A DNA stretch of 44,061 nucleotides from the sequence record PP920550.1; one strand, written 5' to 3'. The stretch is from Escherichia phage Dru_SM5. Under the pieces are notes generated by a model. That model saw only the letters and a program-made list of their open reading frames with translations. It did not search any database and was not told the origin of the DNA. How positions within the stretch are numbered: position 1 is the first letter of the stretch; the number at the start of each line of letters is the position of its first letter. Shown here piece by piece: positions 3,512 to 29,748 of this stretch. Made by a program: the position numbers and the translations under genes.

Positions 3512-4598
3512 TCAATATTTGGCGGATCGCATGATTCGCCGTCACCTCTTCACCCAGCGCCTGAGCAATGACCAGGCGCGAAGGGTGCTGTCCATGTGGG
3601 AGAAGTTCCGGCCCACGTTACTGGGTAAGCTGACCGAGTTACTTGATGGTAAAAAAGCCATGAGCAACAAGGCGCTTACCACACTGTTGACGCAACTCGA
3701 CAAGACCGTTAAAACGGAACTGCGCACCGAGTTTAAGGCGCTGGCTGAAAACCTTCAGGAGTTCGCCGACACCGAGGCTGATTATCTAGCCGATACATTA
3801 ACGGCAGCGATCCAGCCTGCGGTCGCCGTACCGGCTGTTGAGGTTGTGAGCGTTGTAACCGGCGCGCAGATTGCAGCGACGGCAATGAAAAACCCGTTCC
3901 AGGGTAACACCATGATGCAGTGGCCTGACTCACTTTCCGAGTGGACCAGGACGCAGATCGGCAATCAGGTGCGCGCCGGATTCATCCAGGGCAAGCCAAC
4001 GATGGAAATTATCGCGGACGTGAGGCGCGCGCTTGGCGGTCGTAGTGCGCAGGCAATCTCAAGCGTTGTTAAGTCCGCGGTCAACCACTATGCGGCGACC
4101 GCCCGCGAATTAATGGTAAAAGCTAATGATGATATTCTCGAAGGTCGCCAATGGTTATCTACATTGGACACGCATACTTCTCCCATGTGCCAGCTACGCG
4201 ATCGCCTGTTTTATCCTGTTGACGTCACTCCCGACACCAAAGGAAAACGCGGCGGGAAAATGGTGGCTGGGTCACAATATGGCGCTGGTCCGGGCAAGTT
4301 GCATTATTGTTGCCGGTCGACGGAGACGTGGAAGGTTAAAGGCATGGAAGATTGGCCCAGTGGTAAGCGTCCGGCGCTGAAGGCTGACGCGGGCCGATTG
4401 CTGAGTGAGCAGGTGGACGCGCAGACTGATTTCTTCTCATGGGTGCAGCGCCAGCCGCGCCATATCCTGGAAGAATTATACGGAGTGCAACGCGCCGACC
4501 AGATTATGCGCGGCGTGAAAGTGCCGAAGATGTTTACCGATTCTGGCGAACTGATGACTATCGCACAGCTTAAAAACCGGGGGTTATGGCGTGATTAA
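3495..4598 (+). CDS. head morphogenesis / minor head protein (Mu F / SPP1 gp7-like)
   Basis: 367 aa ORF overlapping the portal 3' end by 17 nt. Conserved synteny position after portal. Function by position and size. Confidence 0.6.
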   Translation: MAKTINQYLADRMIRRHLFTQRLSNDQARRVLSMWEKFRPTLLGKLTELLDGKKAMSNKALTTLLTQLDKTVKTELRTEFKALAENLQEFADTEADYLADTLTAAIQPAVAVPAVEVVSVVTGAQIAATAMKNPFQGNTMMQWPDSLSEWTRTQIGNQVRAGFIQGKPTMEIIADVRRALGGRSAQAISSVVKSAVNHYAATARELMVKANDDILEGRQWLSTLDTHTSPMCQLRDRLFYPVDVTPDTKGKRGGKMVAGSQYGAGPGKLHYCCRSTETWKVKGMEDWPSGKRPALKADAGRLLSEQVDAQTDFFSWVQRQPRHILEELYGVQRADQIMRGVKVPKMFTDSGELMTIAQLKNRGLWRD

Positions 4599-23488: not shown

Positions 23489-23511
23489 GGGGCCACACGG
23501 CCCCTTTTTTT
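23489..23511. terminator. bidirectional terminator
   Basis: GGGGCC-acac-GGCCCC hairpin followed by TTTTTTT, between convergent genes. Confidence 0.55.
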
Positions 23512-24085
23512 AGTTTGAGTTTTCCCAGTCCATTTTGCGCCGCACCAGCGGGCTTTCGTAATATTCCTTGCCTTCCACTTCCACTAAGGGCCAATCATTA
23601 ACAATCACGTATGGCTCTGCGATATCTTCAATAACGCCGTGCGCGCTTTGTGGTCCCAACGACACGCCCACCAGGATAACACCGGCAACTCGACGGGTAA
23701 GATACTCGCGAGCGCAACGTGCCTCAACCAGTCCGCGACGGATGCCGCTGGTGGCTTTAACCTCGTAGGTCCAGACGGCATCGATCACATGCTCGCGGAA
23801 GTCGGGACCGGACTTAACCTTGCGCTTGCCGACCATGATAATATCGCCGCGGTCGATAGTGTTAGCGCTAAACAGGCCGGTACGCATTAGCAAACCTTGT
23901 GGAATACAGCTACGCCCGCCCGACTGCCCTTCGAGGTACATGCCTGCAAACATCTCGCCCAGCACACCGACAAGACGGCTTTGCTTGCACGCGTCAGACT
24001 TGTATCTCCACTGGTCAAACTCGATGCTTGCTATCATTGCCGCAAGGTGGAATTGTTTACCGGATATTTCATATTCGCCGTACAT
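23510..24085 (-). CDS. hypothetical protein, possible PD-(D/E)xK-type nuclease
   Basis: 191 aa with RBS GAGGACC. Contains GPDF...13 aa...EVK, fitting a PD-x(n)-ExK spacing. Assignment is motif-only and weak. Confidence 0.35.
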   Translation of the reverse strand: MYGEYEISGKQFHLAAMIASIEFDQWRYKSDACKQSRLVGVLGEMFAGMYLEGQSGGRSCIPQGLLMRTGLFSANTIDRGDIIMVGKRKVKSGPDFREHVIDAVWTYEVKATSGIRRGLVEARCAREYLTRRVAGVILVGVSLGPQSAHGVIEDIAEPYVIVNDWPLVEVEGKEYYESPLVRRKMDWENSN

Positions 24086-24127
24086 CGTGTGGTCCTCATT
24101 GATGCGGGCTTCGGCCCGCGATTAGAA

Positions 24128-24682
24128 TTATTTCAGTGCGCTACGTACCAGTGTTTTTTCCATGTTGCGGAAGTCTTCCGGCGTCATGAGGATTTTGGAC
24201 CCATCCTCTCCAGTGAGCACGACCATAGGCTGGACGTCCTGGGCCGCTACGCCGAAATTGGCGGCTTTGACAGTCTTCCCGAACGAGGCCACCACACCTT
24301 CGGAAACGCGCATTGCACTGTTATACGCATTAATCTCGCCATCTAGTCGTACGGACAGGTCTTTGAGGCTGTCGAATTGTGCTGCCGTTGTGTCGATCTG
24401 GATCTCGTCATGCACGGTCATGTACGACTCGCCCAGCAGGGCGGAATAGGCTACCAGGTCAACGATGTTATCGTCCTGGTGCTTACGGTGCTGGCGTACC
24501 AGCTTCAGGCAGACCAGGAAGGTCCAGGCTTCTTGCTCGGTCAGGTCGCGCCCGGTAAGCGCGTTAAACACGTCAGCGATTTGTTTAGCGCTGCGTTCTT
24601 CTTTCGCGTTGTCATAGCCGTTTTCTTTTCCGCGCTGTTCCATAGTGGTGGCGGCGTTTTTGCAGTATTCGTATGCTTTCAT
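24128..24682 (-). CDS. hypothetical protein
   Basis: 184 aa with RBS AAGGACC. No recognisable motif. Confidence 0.6.
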   Translation of the reverse strand: MKAYEYCKNAATTMEQRGKENGYDNAKEERSAKQIADVFNALTGRDLTEQEAWTFLVCLKLVRQHRKHQDDNIVDLVAYSALLGESYMTVHDEIQIDTTAAQFDSLKDLSVRLDGEINAYNSAMRVSEGVVASFGKTVKAANFGVAAQDVQPMVVLTGEDGSKILMTPEDFRNMEKTLVRSALK

Positions 24683-24727
24683 TATGTGGTCCTTATTAGC
24701 GCGGGGCCATATTGCCCCGACGCGTTA

Positions 24728-24757
24728 ACTATAGTGCAACCAACCTATTGGTTGCAA
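24728..24757 (-). promoter_or_regulatory. candidate promoter embedded in a 9-bp-arm inverted repeat
   Basis: On the minus strand: TTGCAA, 18 nt spacer, TATAGT. Spacer overlaps the inverted repeat TGCAACCAA-ccta-TTGGTTGCA (24735-24756). About 45 nt upstream of the 24682 start. Confidence 0.35.
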
Positions 24758-25215
24758 GTAAATTTTGCAACGTTTATTGCGTAAATTTTCGGGACTAAAT
24801 CGCCGCACGCCCGACGAATGGCCGCGATGTTCTTCGGACCGTCTTCAATGATGACCAGTTCCGATACGTCCGCATAGCAGACCATTTTGAATACAGCGCA
24901 CGCCTTAAACTCTGGCGGCGGGGTGTCGTCCAGCATGTGGCGCATAAACAACCGGCCGTTCGGGAATACTTTCAGTTGCTCGGCGGTGGTGTCCCAGCAT
25001 TCTCGCTGCCGGTTTGTCAGATACGCGATCTCGAAGCCTTGCTCTTTATACATGCGCAGTAGCGGCAGCATATCCATGTTCAGGTCTTCGCGAACGTGCG
25101 CTTTGTGCCACTTCGCCCAAAAGGTGGATTTCGTTTTTATGCCGGGCACCAGGTCAGCACGCGCATCGCTTGATCCATTAATAACGCCATCCAAATCGCA
25201 AATCAGTAGTTTCAT
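24745..25215 (-). CDS. HAD-superfamily phosphatase-like protein
   Basis: N-terminal MKLLICDLDGV (HAD motif I DxDG), a downstream Thr/Ser motif, and EDGP near the C-terminus. 156 aa. Confidence 0.55.
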   Translation of the reverse strand: MKLLICDLDGVINGSSDARADLVPGIKTKSTFWAKWHKAHVREDLNMDMLPLLRMYKEQGFEIAYLTNRQRECWDTTAEQLKVFPNGRLFMRHMLDDTPPPEFKACAVFKMVCYADVSELVIIEDGPKNIAAIRRACGDLVPKIYAINVAKFTCNQ

Positions 25216-25445
25216 TTTAAGCTCTCAATAAGTGTCTGTCGGGCGCTTCGCGCAGTAAAGGAGTTGCATACGAAATGGCAACGCCGAGTTATGACAAGCC
25301 AACCGGTGAGGTCAAGGCCCATGATGCGTCCGGGATGGGACGCGCGCACCACATGATTGCGGCGTGGGTCGATGCAGAAGTCTTTTTGCATTTGGTCTAC
25401 TACCGCGGGGTCGCGGTCAACGATTAAGATATTCATGTAGCTCAC
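25212..25445 (-). CDS. hypothetical protein
   Basis: 77 aa ORF, overlaps neighbours by a few nt on both sides. Confidence 0.4.
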   Translation of the reverse strand: MSYMNILIVDRDPAVVDQMQKDFCIDPRRNHVVRASHPGRIMGLDLTGWLVITRRCHFVCNSFTARSARQTLIESLK

Positions 25446-25902
25446 TCTCGCTCATTATTTCAATTTGTGCGCTGCCGCATGGCGGCGCTTCGTCAAATAT
25501 TATCAATTGCTGGCACTTGTTATTGCTCGGCCCGACTTCACCGGTTACAGCATGTATGAATCGGATCCGCCAGTCCAGAAGAATTATCAGGTTTGCAGTC
25601 TTCCTGGCCAGCTTCGCCCACTTCGTCGACGTGTCCTGATTCAGCAGCATGACAGTCCGTCGACCGTGCGCTGCGCATTCCACCCACGGCAGCGGATCGG
25701 AATACGGCGGATTGCACCACTTCCACCCTTTCAACTCTGACCAGTCCACATCAAGCGCGCTGTGCTCTGCCGTGAAGTAACGCGGTAGCAGATGGTTGGC
25801 GTCGCTTGCCGCCATATCGTAACGGAATCGGAACTTACGGCGCAGCGGTTTAAATAAAGCTGGCGGCGTGCGCCAGCTATCTTTCTGCTCACTCTTCTGC
25901 AT
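25417..25902 (-). CDS. DNA N6-adenine methyltransferase (phage Dam-like)
   Basis: Catalytic NPPY motif (WKWCNPPYSD). Size about 160 aa, typical of phage orphan N6-adenine methyltransferases. Confidence 0.75.
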   Translation of the reverse strand: MQKSEQKDSWRTPPALFKPLRRKFRFRYDMAASDANHLLPRYFTAEHSALDVDWSELKGWKWCNPPYSDPLPWVECAAHGRRTVMLLNQDTSTKWAKLARKTANLIILLDWRIRFIHAVTGEVGPSNNKCQQLIIFDEAPPCGSAQIEIMSESELHEYLNR

Positions 25903-26347
25903 AGTCTGGATCTATCGCATACAGGGCGGTTTTCTTTCCGCCGGATAGCACGCGTTGGACTCTGGACATCTCCTCCTTACTGAGCGGTCGGCTATCGGAA
26001 TAGTAGCTGCCGTTTGCACGCCACGCTATATGCACCAGTCCTTTCCACGGGATCGAAGACTGGCGACCTTTGGGGCGCACGTACGCCTCGGCCCGTTTGC
26101 AATGCTCGCGCAAACCTTCGGCTGTGAGTCGATTTAGTGCGACGGTGGTTGTGTATCCGGTGCGCTGCATAATACACATCAACTCATACAGCAGATCGAA
26201 GCGCTCCTCTAATTCCTTTCGCGCCTTCTCCTCGCCTTCATAGCTCGCCAGATAGGTGTCTGCCAGCGCGCTAACACGTTTGACCTGTTCGCGGGCTTCG
26301 AGGCATTGCGCGGCCCAGTAATTTTTCTCTTCTTGTAAAATCTTCAT
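25889..26347 (-). CDS. hypothetical protein
   Basis: 152 aa ORF overlapping the Dam start by 14 nt. Confidence 0.5.
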   Translation of the reverse strand: MKILQEEKNYWAAQCLEAREQVKRVSALADTYLASYEGEEKARKELEERFDLLYELMCIMQRTGYTTTVALNRLTAEGLREHCKRAEAYVRPKGRQSSIPWKGLVHIAWRANGSYYSDSRPLSKEEMSRVQRVLSGGKKTALYAIDPDYAEE

Positions 26348-26590
26348 TTATTTAATCTCCGTAGTGCGGATTTCCTTGCGCGGAATAAATTTGCCGTCTT
26401 TCTCGACCCAGCAAGTTCCGAAACGCCATTGGGTATTACGGCCTGTTTGCTCGGCATATACGGTCTTGCATTCGTAGCGTTCCGTATAGTAAGTAGCCGC
26501 GGTAGGTACGAAAATACAAACGGCAAACATGAGGGTGAGTATCACCCAAAATCGAAGGTCGCCGTCGTAGTCGAAAAATAATGATCTCAT
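26348..26590 (-). CDS. small membrane protein
   Basis: 80 aa with one predicted TM helix (FWVILTLMFAVCIFVP). RBS GGAGA. Preceded on the minus strand by a terminator hairpin. Confidence 0.5.
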   Translation of the reverse strand: MRSLFFDYDGDLRFWVILTLMFAVCIFVPTAATYYTERYECKTVYAEQTGRNTQWRFGTCWVEKDGKFIPRKEIRTTEIK

Positions 26591-26608
26591 CGTGTTGTCT
26601 CCAGGTAT

Positions 26609-26636
26609 TAAAAAGGGCGTCCAAACCGGACACCCT
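26609..26636 (-). terminator. minus-strand intrinsic terminator / attenuator
   Basis: Minus strand: GGGTGTCC-ggtttg-GACGCCC followed by TTTTT, immediately upstream of the RBS of the 26590 gene. Confidence 0.45.
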
Positions 26637-26671
26637 TAATGTAATGCAACCAATCTAATTATGCAACCAAT

Positions 26672-26989
26672 TTACGCATAAAAGTTTGGGTCGCGTGCAA
26701 CGTCTACCAGGTAAAGGTTGCTTATGCGGTTGCCGTAGTGCCCTGGAGTGCGCTGGCGGCACACAACGGCGAAGCCTGGGGGGATTGTATTGCCCGTCTC
26801 AATAATCCACGCCACGCGTGCACCAGACAGCGTCTTGCCGTTGCATTCGATACGTGTTCCGCCGTCGGCAGTATTGATGTTGCCGATCTTGCAGCCGGTG
26901 GACTTCAGACGGATGACTCCGGTTTTGCTGTCGTAGGTGAATAGCTGGTTAGTCATTGCAACCGAAAAGTCGATGGCTTCGAATGTCAT
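26672..26989 (-). CDS. hypothetical protein (possibly degenerate HNH/NUMOD-like)
   Basis: 105 aa. The G-x-x-IECNGK...ARVAWIIETG pattern loosely recalls phage HNH_3-type proteins but lacks the catalytic His. Function uncertain. Confidence 0.4.
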   Translation of the reverse strand: MTFEAIDFSVAMTNQLFTYDSKTGVIRLKSTGCKIGNINTADGGTRIECNGKTLSGARVAWIIETGNTIPPGFAVVCRQRTPGHYGNRISNLYLVDVARDPNFYA

Positions 26990-26990
26990 T

Positions 26991-28619
26991 TTAAATTTTC
27001 CTCGTTTTCTTAGCTTTCATGTATTCCATCAAGTCGTCCTGAATATCTCGCTTACTGTCTCGACGCTCGGCGACCAGTTCGTCCAGTGTACCGCGCGCCT
27101 GGATAATGTAGACGAATACCGGACGGGGGTGTCCTGCTTGCATCTGGCGAACCGGCCCGATACGTTCAACGATCTGCGAAAAGTGCTCAAAGTTCCAGGT
27201 ATCGGAGAAGATTGCCAGGTGGTGACCGCCGTCCTGCAAGTTAAGGCCGTGGCCGGCCGATGCCGGGTGTGCAAACATGATGGGTATCTCGCCCCTGTTC
27301 CACGCTTCCATATCCTTATTCCCCTGCTTACCTTTGCCCAACGCAACGCCGTGCGGAAATTTCTTCTTGAGACGCGCCAGGTCATGCTTGTACTGGTACG
27401 CAACGAGCAACGGGGCGCCGTTCAACTCCTCTACGATACTTTCCAGCGCGTCCAGCTTGGCGTCGTGGATCTTCACCCACTCGTCGGTCCGTTCGCCGTC
27501 TTCGTCGACTTTATACACGGCCCCGGAAGCAAGCTGAAGGCACTTAATAGTCTTCGAAGCAGCGTTCGCCGCCTCCACAGTTCCGCTTTCCAGTTCGGCA
27601 AATAGCTCCGCTTCGAACTGGTCATAAATCTTGCGGGCTTTCTTCGGCAGGTCCACAACAACAGGCGTATAGATTGGCTTGTCGCATCCGAAGTATTCAG
27701 CCGCGTCAACGGTGAGGGATACATCAGACAGGCGTTGTTGTATTTCTTTCTCGGAGTTCTTTAGCGGAGCGTGCTGCATCGTGAAGCTGCCGGGGTTAAC
27801 CGGCTTGCTAATGAACCAGCGATCGGTGAATGCCTTATAGCTACTGCCGAGACGCTCGCCACCGTCGACAAACCACGTCTGACCCCATAAGTCTTTTAAG
27901 CCATTAGGCGCGGGTGTGCCGGTCAGGTTAATCCAGCGCTTGACGTGCTTATGTGCAACCGCTGCCAGTGCGCGGGCGCGCTTACTCCCCTGCTTACTTC
28001 GATAGCCTTTCAGCTTAGGCGCGGGTGTGCCGGTCAGGTTAATCCAGCGCTTGACGTGCTTATGTGCAACCGCTGCCAGTGCGCGGGCGCGCTTACTCCC
28101 CTGCTTACTTCGATAGCCTTTCAGCTTAGTGGATTCATCGGCAACAACGACCGTAAAGGGCCACGCATCGCCGTAATAGTCAACCAGCCACTCAACCACA
28201 TCATAGTTAACACAAACCACGTTAGCGTCGCTCTCCAACGCGGCTATGCGGTCTTTCTCCGGCCCAGTGCCGTCTACGACCAGGAGGGATGAGAACCGCC
28301 ATTTCTCCTGCTCCGGGGGCCATGTACCTGACGCAACACGCAGCGGGGCCAGCACCAGTACGCGGTCGTCATGATGGGATAGGACGCCAGTCTGGAACAT
28401 TTTATTCAGCGCCCACATTGTCGCGCCGGTTTTACCGGATCCCATTGTCGCCCAGATATTACATCGCTTATGCTTGAGGATGAACGCGGTTATCAACTTC
28501 TGATATTCGCGGCGTCGGAATCGTGCCATATCTTTATTCCGCCTTTTTCCAGACTTCGGTTTCACTGTTCCAGTTCCTTTTTGTGGCGTCGTAGTTGGTG
28601 GCGTGTCCGATGTGGACAC
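26991..28619 (-). CDS. SNF2/DEAD-like superfamily 2 helicase
   Basis: Motif I WATMGSGKT, motif II VADEST, motif III LTGTPAP (duplicated by a 111 bp tandem repeat), plus C-terminal helicase motifs. Alternative start at 28529. Confidence 0.75.
   Translation of the reverse strand: MSTSDTPPTTTPQKGTGTVKPKSGKRRNKDMARFRRREYQKLITAFILKHKRCNIWATMGSGKTGATMWALNKMFQTGVLSHHDDRVLVLAPLRVASGTWPPEQEKWRFSSLLVVDGTGPEKDRIAALESDANVVCVNYDVVEWLVDYYGDAWPFTVVVADESTKLKGYRSKQGSKRARALAAVAHKHVKRWINLTGTPAPKLKGYRSKQGSKRARALAAVAHKHVKRWINLTGTPAPNGLKDLWGQTWFVDGGERLGSSYKAFTDRWFISKPVNPGSFTMQHAPLKNSEKEIQQRLSDVSLTVDAAEYFGCDKPIYTPVVVDLPKKARKIYDQFEAELFAELESGTVEAANAASKTIKCLQLASGAVYKVDEDGERTDEWVKIHDAKLDALESIVEELNGAPLLVAYQYKHDLARLKKKFPHGVALGKGKQGNKDMEAWNRGEIPIMFAHPASAGHGLNLQDGGHHLAIFSDTWNFEHFSQIVERIGPVRQMQAGHPRPVFVYIIQARGTLDELVAERRDSKRDIQDDLMEYMKAKKTRKI
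27904..28129. repeat. perfect 111-bp tandem duplication inside helicase gene
   Basis: Two identical 111 bp units (period verified 27904 to 28015). Encodes KLKGYRSKQGSKRARALAAVAHKHVKRWINLTGTPAP twice, in frame. Confidence 0.85.
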
Positions 28620-28634
28620 CAGTAGCCGTATTAA

Positions 28635-28820
28635 TTATTTTTGTTCCGCACGGTAGCGGCGCTGCCGTTCTCGTTCTGCCTTGTTACGGCACGACTTACA
28701 CTGCGCGCGATACCCGTCCGGGCTACGTGCTGTTTTGCCAGTGTACTTATGAAATTGCGATAGCGGTTTAACACAGCCGCATTGGCTGCAACGTTTTTCT
28801 TCAATCATTTTAACCCTCAT
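28635..28820 (-). CDS. small zinc-ribbon protein
   Basis: 61 aa with CSQCGC...CKSCRNK (two CxxC pairs) and a basic C-terminus. Confidence 0.45.
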   Translation of the reverse strand: MRVKMIEEKRCSQCGCVKPLSQFHKYTGKTARSPDGYRAQCKSCRNKAERERQRRYRAEQK

Positions 28821-29748
28821 TAATAAATGCTTTTATAAATTCAGCCGCTACTTGTGGAACGATGGCATTGCCGTAACCGCGCAGTCGTCCCACTCTGGCG
28901 GGTATCCCATTAGCCAGCGGGAATGTGCCGGATTCAACTGGCCTGAACTTCCCATCGCGGCATCCAAGCCAGTCAGCATCTGACCAGAAGCCGTTATGCG
29001 GATCGGATGTGCTATCCTCAGACCTTGCTCCGTCGAATAATCCAGGCGGTCGAATGTTCTGTCTTTCCCGTCTTTCCTTATCACTGTCCCCCCGCTTCCC
29101 TTGAAATCGTTCGCCGTCGGTGCGGCCCAGCTTGTCAGCACCGCGACGTCCTGCAAATTTTGCTGCCGTCCTGCTTCCTTGCGTTTTATTACTTTCTCCC
29201 AATCCGTGTAACCGTTCACCGTCCCGTTTTGCGCGCAAGGACTCGGCCAGGTTGTAAGCCCCGAAGAAAAGTCTGTCCCGTTTGTGCGGTGCGCCGACGC
29301 TACAAGCTGGGAGTACGGCAAACCCGACGGCGTAGTCTTCTCTTTCCAGGTGAGCTTGTAAATCACACATCCACGATTTTGCAATTGCTGGCGCAACCTG
29401 CTCCCCAAAGATGATTGTAGGGCGGCACTCGCTGACGAGGCGGAGGAACGTCGGCGCAAGGTGTCTTGGGTCGAACTGTCCAAGCTGACGTCCTGCCGTG
29501 CTAAACGGCTGGCACGGCGGGCTTCCCGTCCAGAGGCGCGTGCTTTCCGAAACGCCCGCAAGTCGGAGCGCGAGAGGCCAGCCGCCAATACCAGCGAAAA
29601 AATGACACTGCGTGAATCCGTCGAGGTCTTCGGGTTGCACATCCTCAATACTCCTTTCATCTACTATGCCATACGGGATATGGCCTTGTTTTATTAGCTC
29701 ACGCAGCCATGCTGCCGCGTGTTTGTCCCATTCGTTGTAATAGTTCAT
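28810..29748 (-). CDS. DNA cytosine-5 methyltransferase
   Basis: Motif I FAGIGG, motif IV GSPPCQPFS (catalytic PC), an ENV-like FGEQV, and motif X GYGNAIVP. Holds a charged low-complexity insert (K/R/G/D-rich) in the variable region. Confidence 0.75.
   Translation of the reverse strand: MNYYNEWDKHAAAWLRELIKQGHIPYGIVDERSIEDVQPEDLDGFTQCHFFAGIGGWPLALRLAGVSESTRLWTGSPPCQPFSTAGRQLGQFDPRHLAPTFLRLVSECRPTIIFGEQVAPAIAKSWMCDLQAHLEREDYAVGFAVLPACSVGAPHKRDRLFFGAYNLAESLRAKRDGERLHGLGESNKTQGSRTAAKFAGRRGADKLGRTDGERFQGKRGDSDKERRERQNIRPPGLFDGARSEDSTSDPHNGFWSDADWLGCRDGKFRPVESGTFPLANGIPARVGRLRGYGNAIVPQVAAEFIKAFINEG

Follow-up and report, generated by a model that had tools for sequence, protein, structure and literature searches.

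A frame nested within a phage cytosine methyltransferase gene may encode its DNA-recognition subunit

The 44,061 nucleotide (nt) sequence of Escherichia phage Dru_SM5 (PP920550.1), referred to here as the window and the basis of all coordinates, includes a gene for a C5-cytosine DNA methyltransferase that poses a question: which part of the enzyme recognizes the DNA target? A first-pass annotation had called two methyltransferases, one N6-adenine and one C5-cytosine. We find both open reading frames (ORFs) on the minus strand, at 25417..25902 (161 amino acids, aa) and 28810..29748 (312 aa), and the calls are supported by matches to PF05869 and PF00145 and by intact motifs. That annotation also proposed that a charged, low-complexity insert sits in the C5 enzyme in place of the recognition domain, and asked whether the insert is functional. 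It missed a 270-codon ORF in the +1 frame of the same DNA (28848..29660). We refer to the long frame as ORF A and to the nested frame as ORF B, and we predict that the nested genes probably specify a two-polypeptide C5 methyltransferase, with A as the catalytic alpha chain and B as the recognition beta chain. The recognition domain is probably not missing from this locus, because it appears to be encoded in another frame. Whether the insert is functional is probably the wrong question, since recognition is most likely supplied by the product of the nested gene.

The catalytic polypeptide and the nested frame

ORF A and its parts are listed below.

28810..29748, minus strand: ORF A (alpha-like), C5-cytosine methyltransferase catalytic polypeptide, 312 aa, assigned by PF00145 and by alignment to HhaI
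29254..29748, minus strand: A residues 1-165, catalytic core with FFAGIGGW (motif I), PPCQPFS (motif IV), FGEQV (motif VI) and PHKRDR (motif VIII)
28999..29253, minus strand: A residues 166-250, K/R/G/D/E-rich stretch, a non-conserved linker of variable length
28873..28998, minus strand: A residues 251-292, conserved block HNGFWSDADWLGCRDGKFRPVESGTFPLANGIPARVGRLRGY, dual-coded with the C-terminus of B
28813..28872, minus strand: A residues 293-312, predicted motif X GNAIVPQVAAEFI and C-terminal helix

The PF00145 match covers only residues 74-168 of A (63 bits against a cut-off of 22), and every methyltransferase model that matches A in Pfam, NCBIfam or PADLOC is confined to approximately residues 3 to 165-170. 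The database search returned more than 8000 homologues of A, protein P0201 among them. A profile of the A family aligns with M.HhaI (reference sequence 100% identical to database protein P0390) at motif I and at motifs IV-VIII, with E=1e-15 to 5e-18. Motif I of A, FFAGIGGW, pairs with HhaI LFAGLGGF (F51 and G53 are invariant), and PPCQPFS, FGEQV and PHKRDR pair with FPCQAFS, FMENV and PQKRER. Also invariant in the family are the catalytic Cys79, the motif VI Glu116, Arg157, Arg159 and G293-N294-A295 of motif X. Catalytically dead motifs had been named as grounds for rejecting a functional enzyme, and this alignment shows the catalytic motifs to be intact.

The N-terminus of A differs from M.HhaI. 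Nothing in A between motifs I and IV corresponds to HhaI residues 34-71, which hold motifs II and III; instead, a YYNEWD..VDERSI block precedes motif I. The N-terminal motif order of the A family looks permuted relative to M.HhaI, with YYNEWD..AAAWL (motif II-like) and VDERSI (motif III-like) before motif I (29600..29748). TIGR00675 and the PADLOC DruM model align the A N-terminus to their motif II region, and an AlphaFold2 model of A places a strand-helix-strand ahead of the motif I strand.

Between motifs VIII and X, A holds only the non-conserved linker and the conserved 42-residue block, in which W255, D265, R269, G281, R285, L289 and R290 are invariant. We found neither a recognition domain nor a motif IX between motifs VIII and X of the A polypeptide, where residues 166-250 are non-conserved and disordered. 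The predicted motif X reads GNAIVPQV, with G293, N294 and A295 invariant, and is followed by a predicted helix (298-311); no hidden Markov model (HMM) or hhalign alignment extended this far. The AlphaFold2 model of A has a mean predicted local distance difference test score (pLDDT) of 48.8 and is usable only for residues 1-145. Most 10-residue blocks of residues 1-140 have a pLDDT of 50-88, and one block falls to 40. When the model was compared with the PDB by Foldseek, only generic Rossmann-like matches were returned, none at E<=0.001.

ORF B lies wholly within A, on the same strand and in the +1 frame.

28848..29642 or 28848..29660, minus strand: ORF B (beta-like), proposed DNA-recognition subunit, 264 aa (ATG at 29642) or 270 aa (ATG at 29660), +1 frame inside A
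29256..29435, minus strand: B residues 76-135, conserved block LQSSLGSRLRQQL..YKLTWKEKTTPSG..ASAHRT, dual-coded with A motifs VI-VIII
29001..29255, minus strand: B residues 136-220, pair of variable modules of WP(S/T)P type (TTWPSPCAQNG..., SWAAPTANDFKGSG...), proposed to recognize the target
28890..28937, minus strand: B residues 242-257, LNPAHSRWLMGYPPEW, motif IX-like element

Its open run of 270 codons spans most of A's 313 codons, compared with 47-130 codons for the longest +1 or +2 open runs in other long genes of the window. The nearest database protein to B is P0001 (264 aa, 93% identity); A and B are each 93-94% identical to database proteins. The last 176 residues of B have 2367 database homologues at E<=0.001, nearly all 220-305 aa long and without a Pfam domain. 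The PHROG database keeps A and B as separate families, phrog_363 for A and phrog_1008 for B (E=5e-46).

The conserved parts of B start at residue 76. Residues 1-74 are disordered and follow frame-A periodicity, and residues 1-75 appear from the codon pattern to be an unselected overprint. In residues 76-135, L85, L89 and G97 are invariant and W105, P111 and G113 nearly so. The AlphaFold2 model of B is usable only for residues 76-123 and 154-175, and its most confident part is a helix at 76-95 with a hairpin at 101-123 (pLDDT 62-79 at residues 81-120).

The central WP(S/T)P-type modules number from one to five per B protein among relatives; phage K1G, for example, lacks the WPSPCAQNG... module found in the window. 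Near-identical modules of the forms WPTPTANDYKGSGxTVIRKDGKDRTFDRLDY and WPSPCAQNGTVNGYxDxxKVxxRKxAGRQxNLQD occur in distant B proteins, in differing order and number (examples are proteins P0015, P0056 and P0091 and loci L061 and L073). This pattern suggests that modules are shuffled between B proteins. Such shuffling would recall the multispecific methyltransferases of Bacillus phages, which have recognition domains in tandem.

Near its C-terminus B has the element LNPAHSRWLMGYPPEW, with L242, P244, W249, M251, G252, E256 and W257 invariant. It pairs residue by residue with HhaI LHPRECARVMGYPDSY (motif IX), an hhalign match that is not significant (E=0.06-0.08). The sole local hhalign match of the B profile to the M.HhaI family falls on HhaI 269-291, KLHPRECARVMGYPDSY, which is motif IX. 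Along the DNA, motifs I-VIII (frame A), the variable region and the IX-like element (frame B) and motif X (frame A) follow one another in the canonical order.

The charged stretch of the C5 ORF exists as described, in A residues 166-250, which include the peptide quoted in the first-pass annotation, RAKRDGERLHGLGESNKTQGSRTAAKFAGRRGADKLGRTDGERFQGKRGDSDKERRERQ. It contains R 14, G 12, D 8, A 7, E 7, S 7, L 6 and K 6 among 85 residues, with a net charge of +5. Its role as an insert that replaces the recognition domain does not hold. The stretch has low column conservation (0.13-0.48, with many gaps), differs in length between relatives, is predicted to be disordered (pLDDT approximately 25-31) and coincides exactly with the two WP(S/T)P-type modules of B. 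It appears to be those modules read in the -1 frame and not a functional insert, because the codon-position pattern there marks the +1 frame as the selected one. The only constraint that we detected on the stretch is the lack of stop codons. When B codons were shuffled, the probability of a stop-free A frame across the centre of B was 0.0125 for the window, and its median per locus was 0.054; log10 P sums to -54 over 34 loci, which are not fully independent.

Selection on the two frames and the start of B

We compared the window with 80 viral contigs that carry B relatives (31-71% B identity), for 81 loci in total. Both frames are open in 73 of the 81, and B is in the +1 frame relative to A every time. 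In these loci A begins with YYNExD...FAGIGGW...PCQPFS and ends with GNAI. The nested layout also occurs in Salmonella phage epsilon15, Rhodobacter phage RcIroh and a T4-like Krischvirus, and tblastn located B-like regions in phages of Klebsiella, Burkholderia, Xanthomonas, Erwinia and Vibrio. As the nested layout recurs in independent phage records, it is not the result of a sequencing error in the window. Pseudomonas phage PMG1 has the layout too, but the N-terminus of A is missing. In this record (L086, 928..1919) the annotated "DNA methyltransferase" is the B-frame ORF, and the A frame lacks an in-frame YYNE..WLR part. An indel in this record, or decay of its alpha gene, may account for the gap.

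Annotation records that we examined usually give one gene of the pair, and some phage records give B alone. The GenBank record of phage K1G annotates both ORFs, as "C-specific methylase" and "Mte8-like protein". Relatives of B were also found by tblastn on plasmids, mainly in records of approximately 20-120 kb and in Ralstonia megaplasmids; all but one of the annotated plasmid matches list "DNA cytosine methyltransferase" only. No restriction enzyme is named under the plasmid tblastn matches, for which the genes beside the matches were not inspected.

Codon-position entropy was calculated from 67 non-identical loci, with synonymous entropy taken at conserved residues that have four- or six-fold degenerate codons. 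Residues 1-95 of A show frame-A periodicity and a synonymous entropy of 1.66 bits. Where A 100-163 (motifs VI-VIII) overlaps B 78-135, the value is 0.90 in A and 0.84 in B. Across B 136-220 the periodicity is that of frame B, with a third-position entropy of 1.5-1.77, and A is not conserved. In the second overlap, A 251-292 over B 221-262, it falls to 0.35 for A and is 0.78 for B, again at synonymous sites. Past the end of B, frame-A periodicity is back (1.27 bits).

Within this second overlap, B codons that share their DNA with variable A residues have free synonymous sites (G252 1.53, L250 1.50), and those that share it with conserved A residues have fixed ones (P254 0.11, S247 0.11). Such a pattern favours selection on both proteins over uniform homogenization of the DNA. 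Codon positions in these loci thus show both frames to be under purifying selection where their conserved parts overlap. We had considered recombination-driven homogenization as the source of the low synonymous variation and rejected it, since B sites track the variability of A residues.

B also has its own start signal, which lies in codons of A.

29651..29656, minus strand: Shine-Dalgarno (SD) sequence AAGGAG for B, 8 nt 5' of the ATG at 29642..29640, formed from the A Arg-Ser codons AGG AGT

The conserved VDxRSIxDV of A is very often encoded as AGG AGY ATY GAR GAT GTN, so that the +1 frame, running through the rare A codons AGG, AGY and GAT, reads AAGGAG-N8-ATG. At that Arg, 24 of 65 loci have the rare codon AGG, compared with 7 of 342 Arg codons elsewhere in the first 100 residues of A (p=1.4e-15), and a +1-frame ATG lies just downstream in 26 of 26 loci with GGAG and in 8 of 39 without it (p=1.8e-11); both are Fisher tests that ignore shared ancestry among the loci. 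Other lineages have an ATG made from Asp-Glu codons, or a strong SD and ATG approximately 6-17 codons upstream of the conserved block of B. A conserved internal start signal for B is shown by these codon choices. Start sites that vary in position and are always present fit independent initiation and a dispensable N-terminal extension of B.

Related enzymes and alternative explanations

The variable region and motif IX together form the small domain of single-chain C5 enzymes, and this domain makes all specific DNA contacts in M.HhaI and M.HaeIII (PMC3404938). The A/B pair resembles M.HhaI in the alignment of A at motifs I and IV-VIII and, by a match that is not significant, in the way LNPAHSRWLMGYPPEW of B lines up with LHPRECARVMGYPDSY. 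It differs in that the recognition domain and motif IX of M.HhaI are in the same frame between motifs VIII and X, whereas here they would be in the other frame. Split C5 enzymes can reassemble (PMC3404938). M.AquI (CYCGRG) is a natural example, with the break in the variable region and subunits that assemble into an active enzyme (PMC3404938). Its small subunit has the distal variable region together with motifs IX and X (PMC3404938). In this locus, by contrast, all of B is nested, and motif X belongs to frame A and lies downstream of the stop region of B.

The closest layout that we found is that of M.EcoHK31I (E. coli HK31, YGGCCR), a two-polypeptide C5 methyltransferase in which beta lies entirely inside alpha in another frame and both chains are required for activity (PMC2836561, PMC3404938). 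Beta lacking at least 42 N-terminal residues was active in vivo with zinc-finger fusions, and a 42-residue deletion of beta abolished activity in vitro (PMC2836561, PMC3404938). The likeness includes B inside A in the +1 frame, motifs I, IV, VI and VIII and a predicted motif X in A, a motif IX-like element in B, and 74 N-terminal residues of B that look like a non-selected overprint. M.EcoHK31I belongs to a restriction-modification system, whereas the A/B pair is an orphan and phage-borne. By analogy, the locus would join the nested alpha/beta C5 methyltransferases, a kind known from M.EcoHK31I and found here in many phage groups, and we infer that activity would need both A and B.

In the mechanism that we propose, A would supply the catalytic large domain (motifs I, IV, VI and VIII, the linker, the conserved 42-residue block and motif X). 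B would be translated from its own ribosome-binding site embedded in the coding sequence of A, and would supply the variable recognition modules and the motif IX-like element, the small-domain parts of single-chain enzymes. The two chains would assemble into one active orphan cytosine methyltransferase that modifies the phage DNA. The charged stretch of A would be a by-product of the B coding sequence, kept free of stop codons.

Several points weigh against this proposal. Translation of B and binding of B to A are predictions from sequence. B has no match in Pfam, NCBIfam, PADLOC or PDB sequences, and the B profile had no match to PDB sequences even at E<=10. The AlphaFold2 monomer model of B is poor (mean pLDDT 49.7, compared with 48.8 for A), and no fold could be assigned to it. 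The motif IX label rests on the residue pattern together with the non-significant hhalign match given above. A hypothetical chimera, A(1-166)+B(135-259)+A(289-312), and C-terminal fragments gave no gain in the Pfam score (62.9 compared with 63 bits). We liken the pair, with its B of approximately 264 aa, to M.EcoHK31I by layout and description. The likeness is imperfect, as the literature puts the predicted recognition domain of M.EcoHK31I in alpha, whereas the variable modules here are in B. The neglect of shared ancestry in the tests of the start signal counts here as well. An open B frame upstream of its conserved part is unsurprising (P approximately 0.5-0.8 by codon shuffling).

Some of these points would suit an A that is a methyltransferase in its own right, perhaps with residues 251-292 as a minimal recognition element, and a B that evolved separately by overprinting and does something else, for instance as a regulator or an anti-defence protein. 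No catalytic motif is lost from A, whose 42-residue block ahead of motif X is strongly conserved, and B has no significant similarity to known methyltransferase domains. We nevertheless regard a self-sufficient A as unlikely. B sits exactly at the position of the variable region and motif IX and ends in a motif IX-like element, and its centre is modular and variable like a recognition domain, while the C-terminal block of A is near-constant in all lineages. A has no recognizable small domain, the part that makes all specific contacts in M.HhaI and M.HaeIII (PMC3404938), and M.EcoHK31I, the only such enzyme to have been studied, requires beta (PMC2836561). The canonical order of motifs on the DNA could also be read as one polypeptide made by two programmed frameshifts, +1 from A into B after motif VIII and -1 back into A before motif X, and in-frame A-to-B fused ORFs do occur in databases. 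This seems to us still less probable. An X_XXY_YYZ heptamer was found in 6 of 67 loci, with differing sequences and none in the window, so there is no conserved slippery site; homopolymer runs of at least 6 were found in 8 loci and are not conserved. Frameshifting would not need A to be stop-free across the centre of B, and it leaves unexplained the protein-level conservation of A 251-292 and B 76-135 and the SD and ATG that B has of its own. Approximately ten fusions occur among the best 150 matches to the fused protein P0104. Their junctions differ (examples fall behind motif VI, behind motif VIII and within the linker), and motif X is absent from all of them. We rejected the fusions as the normal state on these two grounds and ascribe them to sporadic indels or errors.

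The single-chain enzyme of the first-pass annotation, in which a functional charged insert replaces the recognition domain, has in its favour that the stretch is present in A and carries a net positive charge. We give it a very low probability, because the sequence and length of the stretch are unconserved, it is disordered and has frame-B periodicity, and its composition follows from the codons of B. Least credible of all is an artefact, in which sequencing or assembly frameshifts or a decaying pseudogene mimic two frames. A perfect 111-bp tandem duplication lies nearby, and fused or frameshifted variants are present in metagenome assemblies. Yet 73 loci share the layout, as do phages of many genera that were sequenced independently, and both ORFs of the window are intact and close to database proteins (P0001 and P0201). 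A nested pair with a catalytic A and a recognition B is the reading that we favour.

A broader proposition is more tentative, and we put it at somewhat below an even chance. The A/B pair may represent a very large and mostly unannotated class of obligate two-subunit C5 methyltransferases in phages and prophages. In such a class, a B of approximately 200-500 codons, nested in the +1 frame, would hold the whole small domain (one to five exchangeable WPTP-type modules and motif IX), the A linker would be stop-free frame noise, and M.EcoHK31I would be one domesticated member.

Neighbouring genes and significance of the nested pair

The N6-adenine gene is that of an ordinary, separate phage methyltransferase.

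25417..25902, minus strand: Dam-type N6-adenine DNA methyltransferase, 161 aa, assigned by PF05869, PHROG 111 and an NPPY motif

The ORF matches PF05869 with E=8.6e-36 (123.6 bits, cut-off 28.1) and PHROG 111 with E=3e-55, and scores just below the cut-off of the narrower equivalog TIGR01712 (88.5 bits, cut-off 97.05). The NPPY motif occurs as WKWCNPPYS. The DNA of this gene is approximately 90% identical in Dhillonvirus phages, where it is annotated as Dam. The flanking accessory module (24745..25215 and 25889..26347, minus strand) encodes a polynucleotide-kinase/phosphatase-like ORF (phrog_415, E=1.6e-35) and a 152 aa ORF whose PHROG carries the label "DNA ligase" (phrog_10530); a canonical ligase is far longer than this ORF.

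The methyltransferase genes have as neighbours an HNH protein, an SNF2 helicase, a 61 aa Lar-like/zinc-ribbon ORF, a VRR-NUC resolvase and a DNA polymerase. No restriction endonuclease was detected among the neighbours of either methyltransferase in PHROG and PADLOC checks, and the first-pass description of orphan phage methyltransferases without an adjacent endonuclease is a fair one. The 61 aa Cys-rich ORF (28635..28820, minus strand) begins 11 nt before the stop codon of A. Among PHROG families it is nearest to phrog_5558, "Lar-like restriction alleviation protein" (E=1.9e-16), and it matches zinc-ribbon families of the HNH and endonuclease VII kinds more weakly. It may be an anti-restriction gene that follows directly on the methyltransferase pair.

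The SNF2 helicase gene (26991..28619, minus strand) contains the 111-bp tandem duplication (27904..28129, 100% match, 2.0 copies). The duplication is in frame and repeats a 37 aa unit, KLKGYRSKQGSKRARALAAVAHKHVKRWINLTGTPAP, beside the helicase motifs. The helicase is 542 aa in the window compared with 474 aa in relatives. The duplication could be a very recent event or an assembly artefact.

The backbone of the window is Dhillonvirus-like, with approximately 92% identity across approximately 90% of positions 20000-44061. The C5 cassette, unlike this backbone, is nearest to Kagunavirus phages (85%). The backbone and Dam module (23490..27000) are approximately 90% identical to Dhillonvirus phages, and comparison of window positions 23510..29748 with phages welsh and K1G indicates a mosaic structure. 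Phage welsh (L087), a typical Dhillonvirus, has an unrelated C5 enzyme of 236 aa, without a nested ORF and at another position, between the HNH and helicase genes (3550..4260). The window lacks this 236 aa gene and has the nested A/B cassette instead, at the Kagunavirus position (as in K1G, L001).

We found no account of the nested A/B arrangement in phages in the open-access literature that we searched. Gene callers often miss nested same-strand overlapping genes, as they penalize overlaps (PMC11445585). The arrangement recalls Rz/Rz1, in which a second gene lies inside a longer one on the same strand in another frame. It differs from Rz/Rz1 in that the overlap is far longer (approximately 264 codons) and the products seem to be portions of an enzyme that usually consists of one chain. 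If the broader proposition of a large two-subunit class holds, A and B would be an unusually long, widespread and conserved same-strand nested gene pair in double-stranded DNA phages. The pair is a clean and statistically strong case of long dual coding in DNA phages, useful for tests of overlapping-gene detection and for ideas about overprinting. The pairs would also be natural and very diverse split C5 methyltransferases with exchangeable recognition modules; the split format of M.EcoHK31I has already been used for targeted methylation (PMC2836561). Because annotations usually list one gene of the two, specificity prediction and the reading of methylomes for many phages would omit the subunit that most likely sets specificity.

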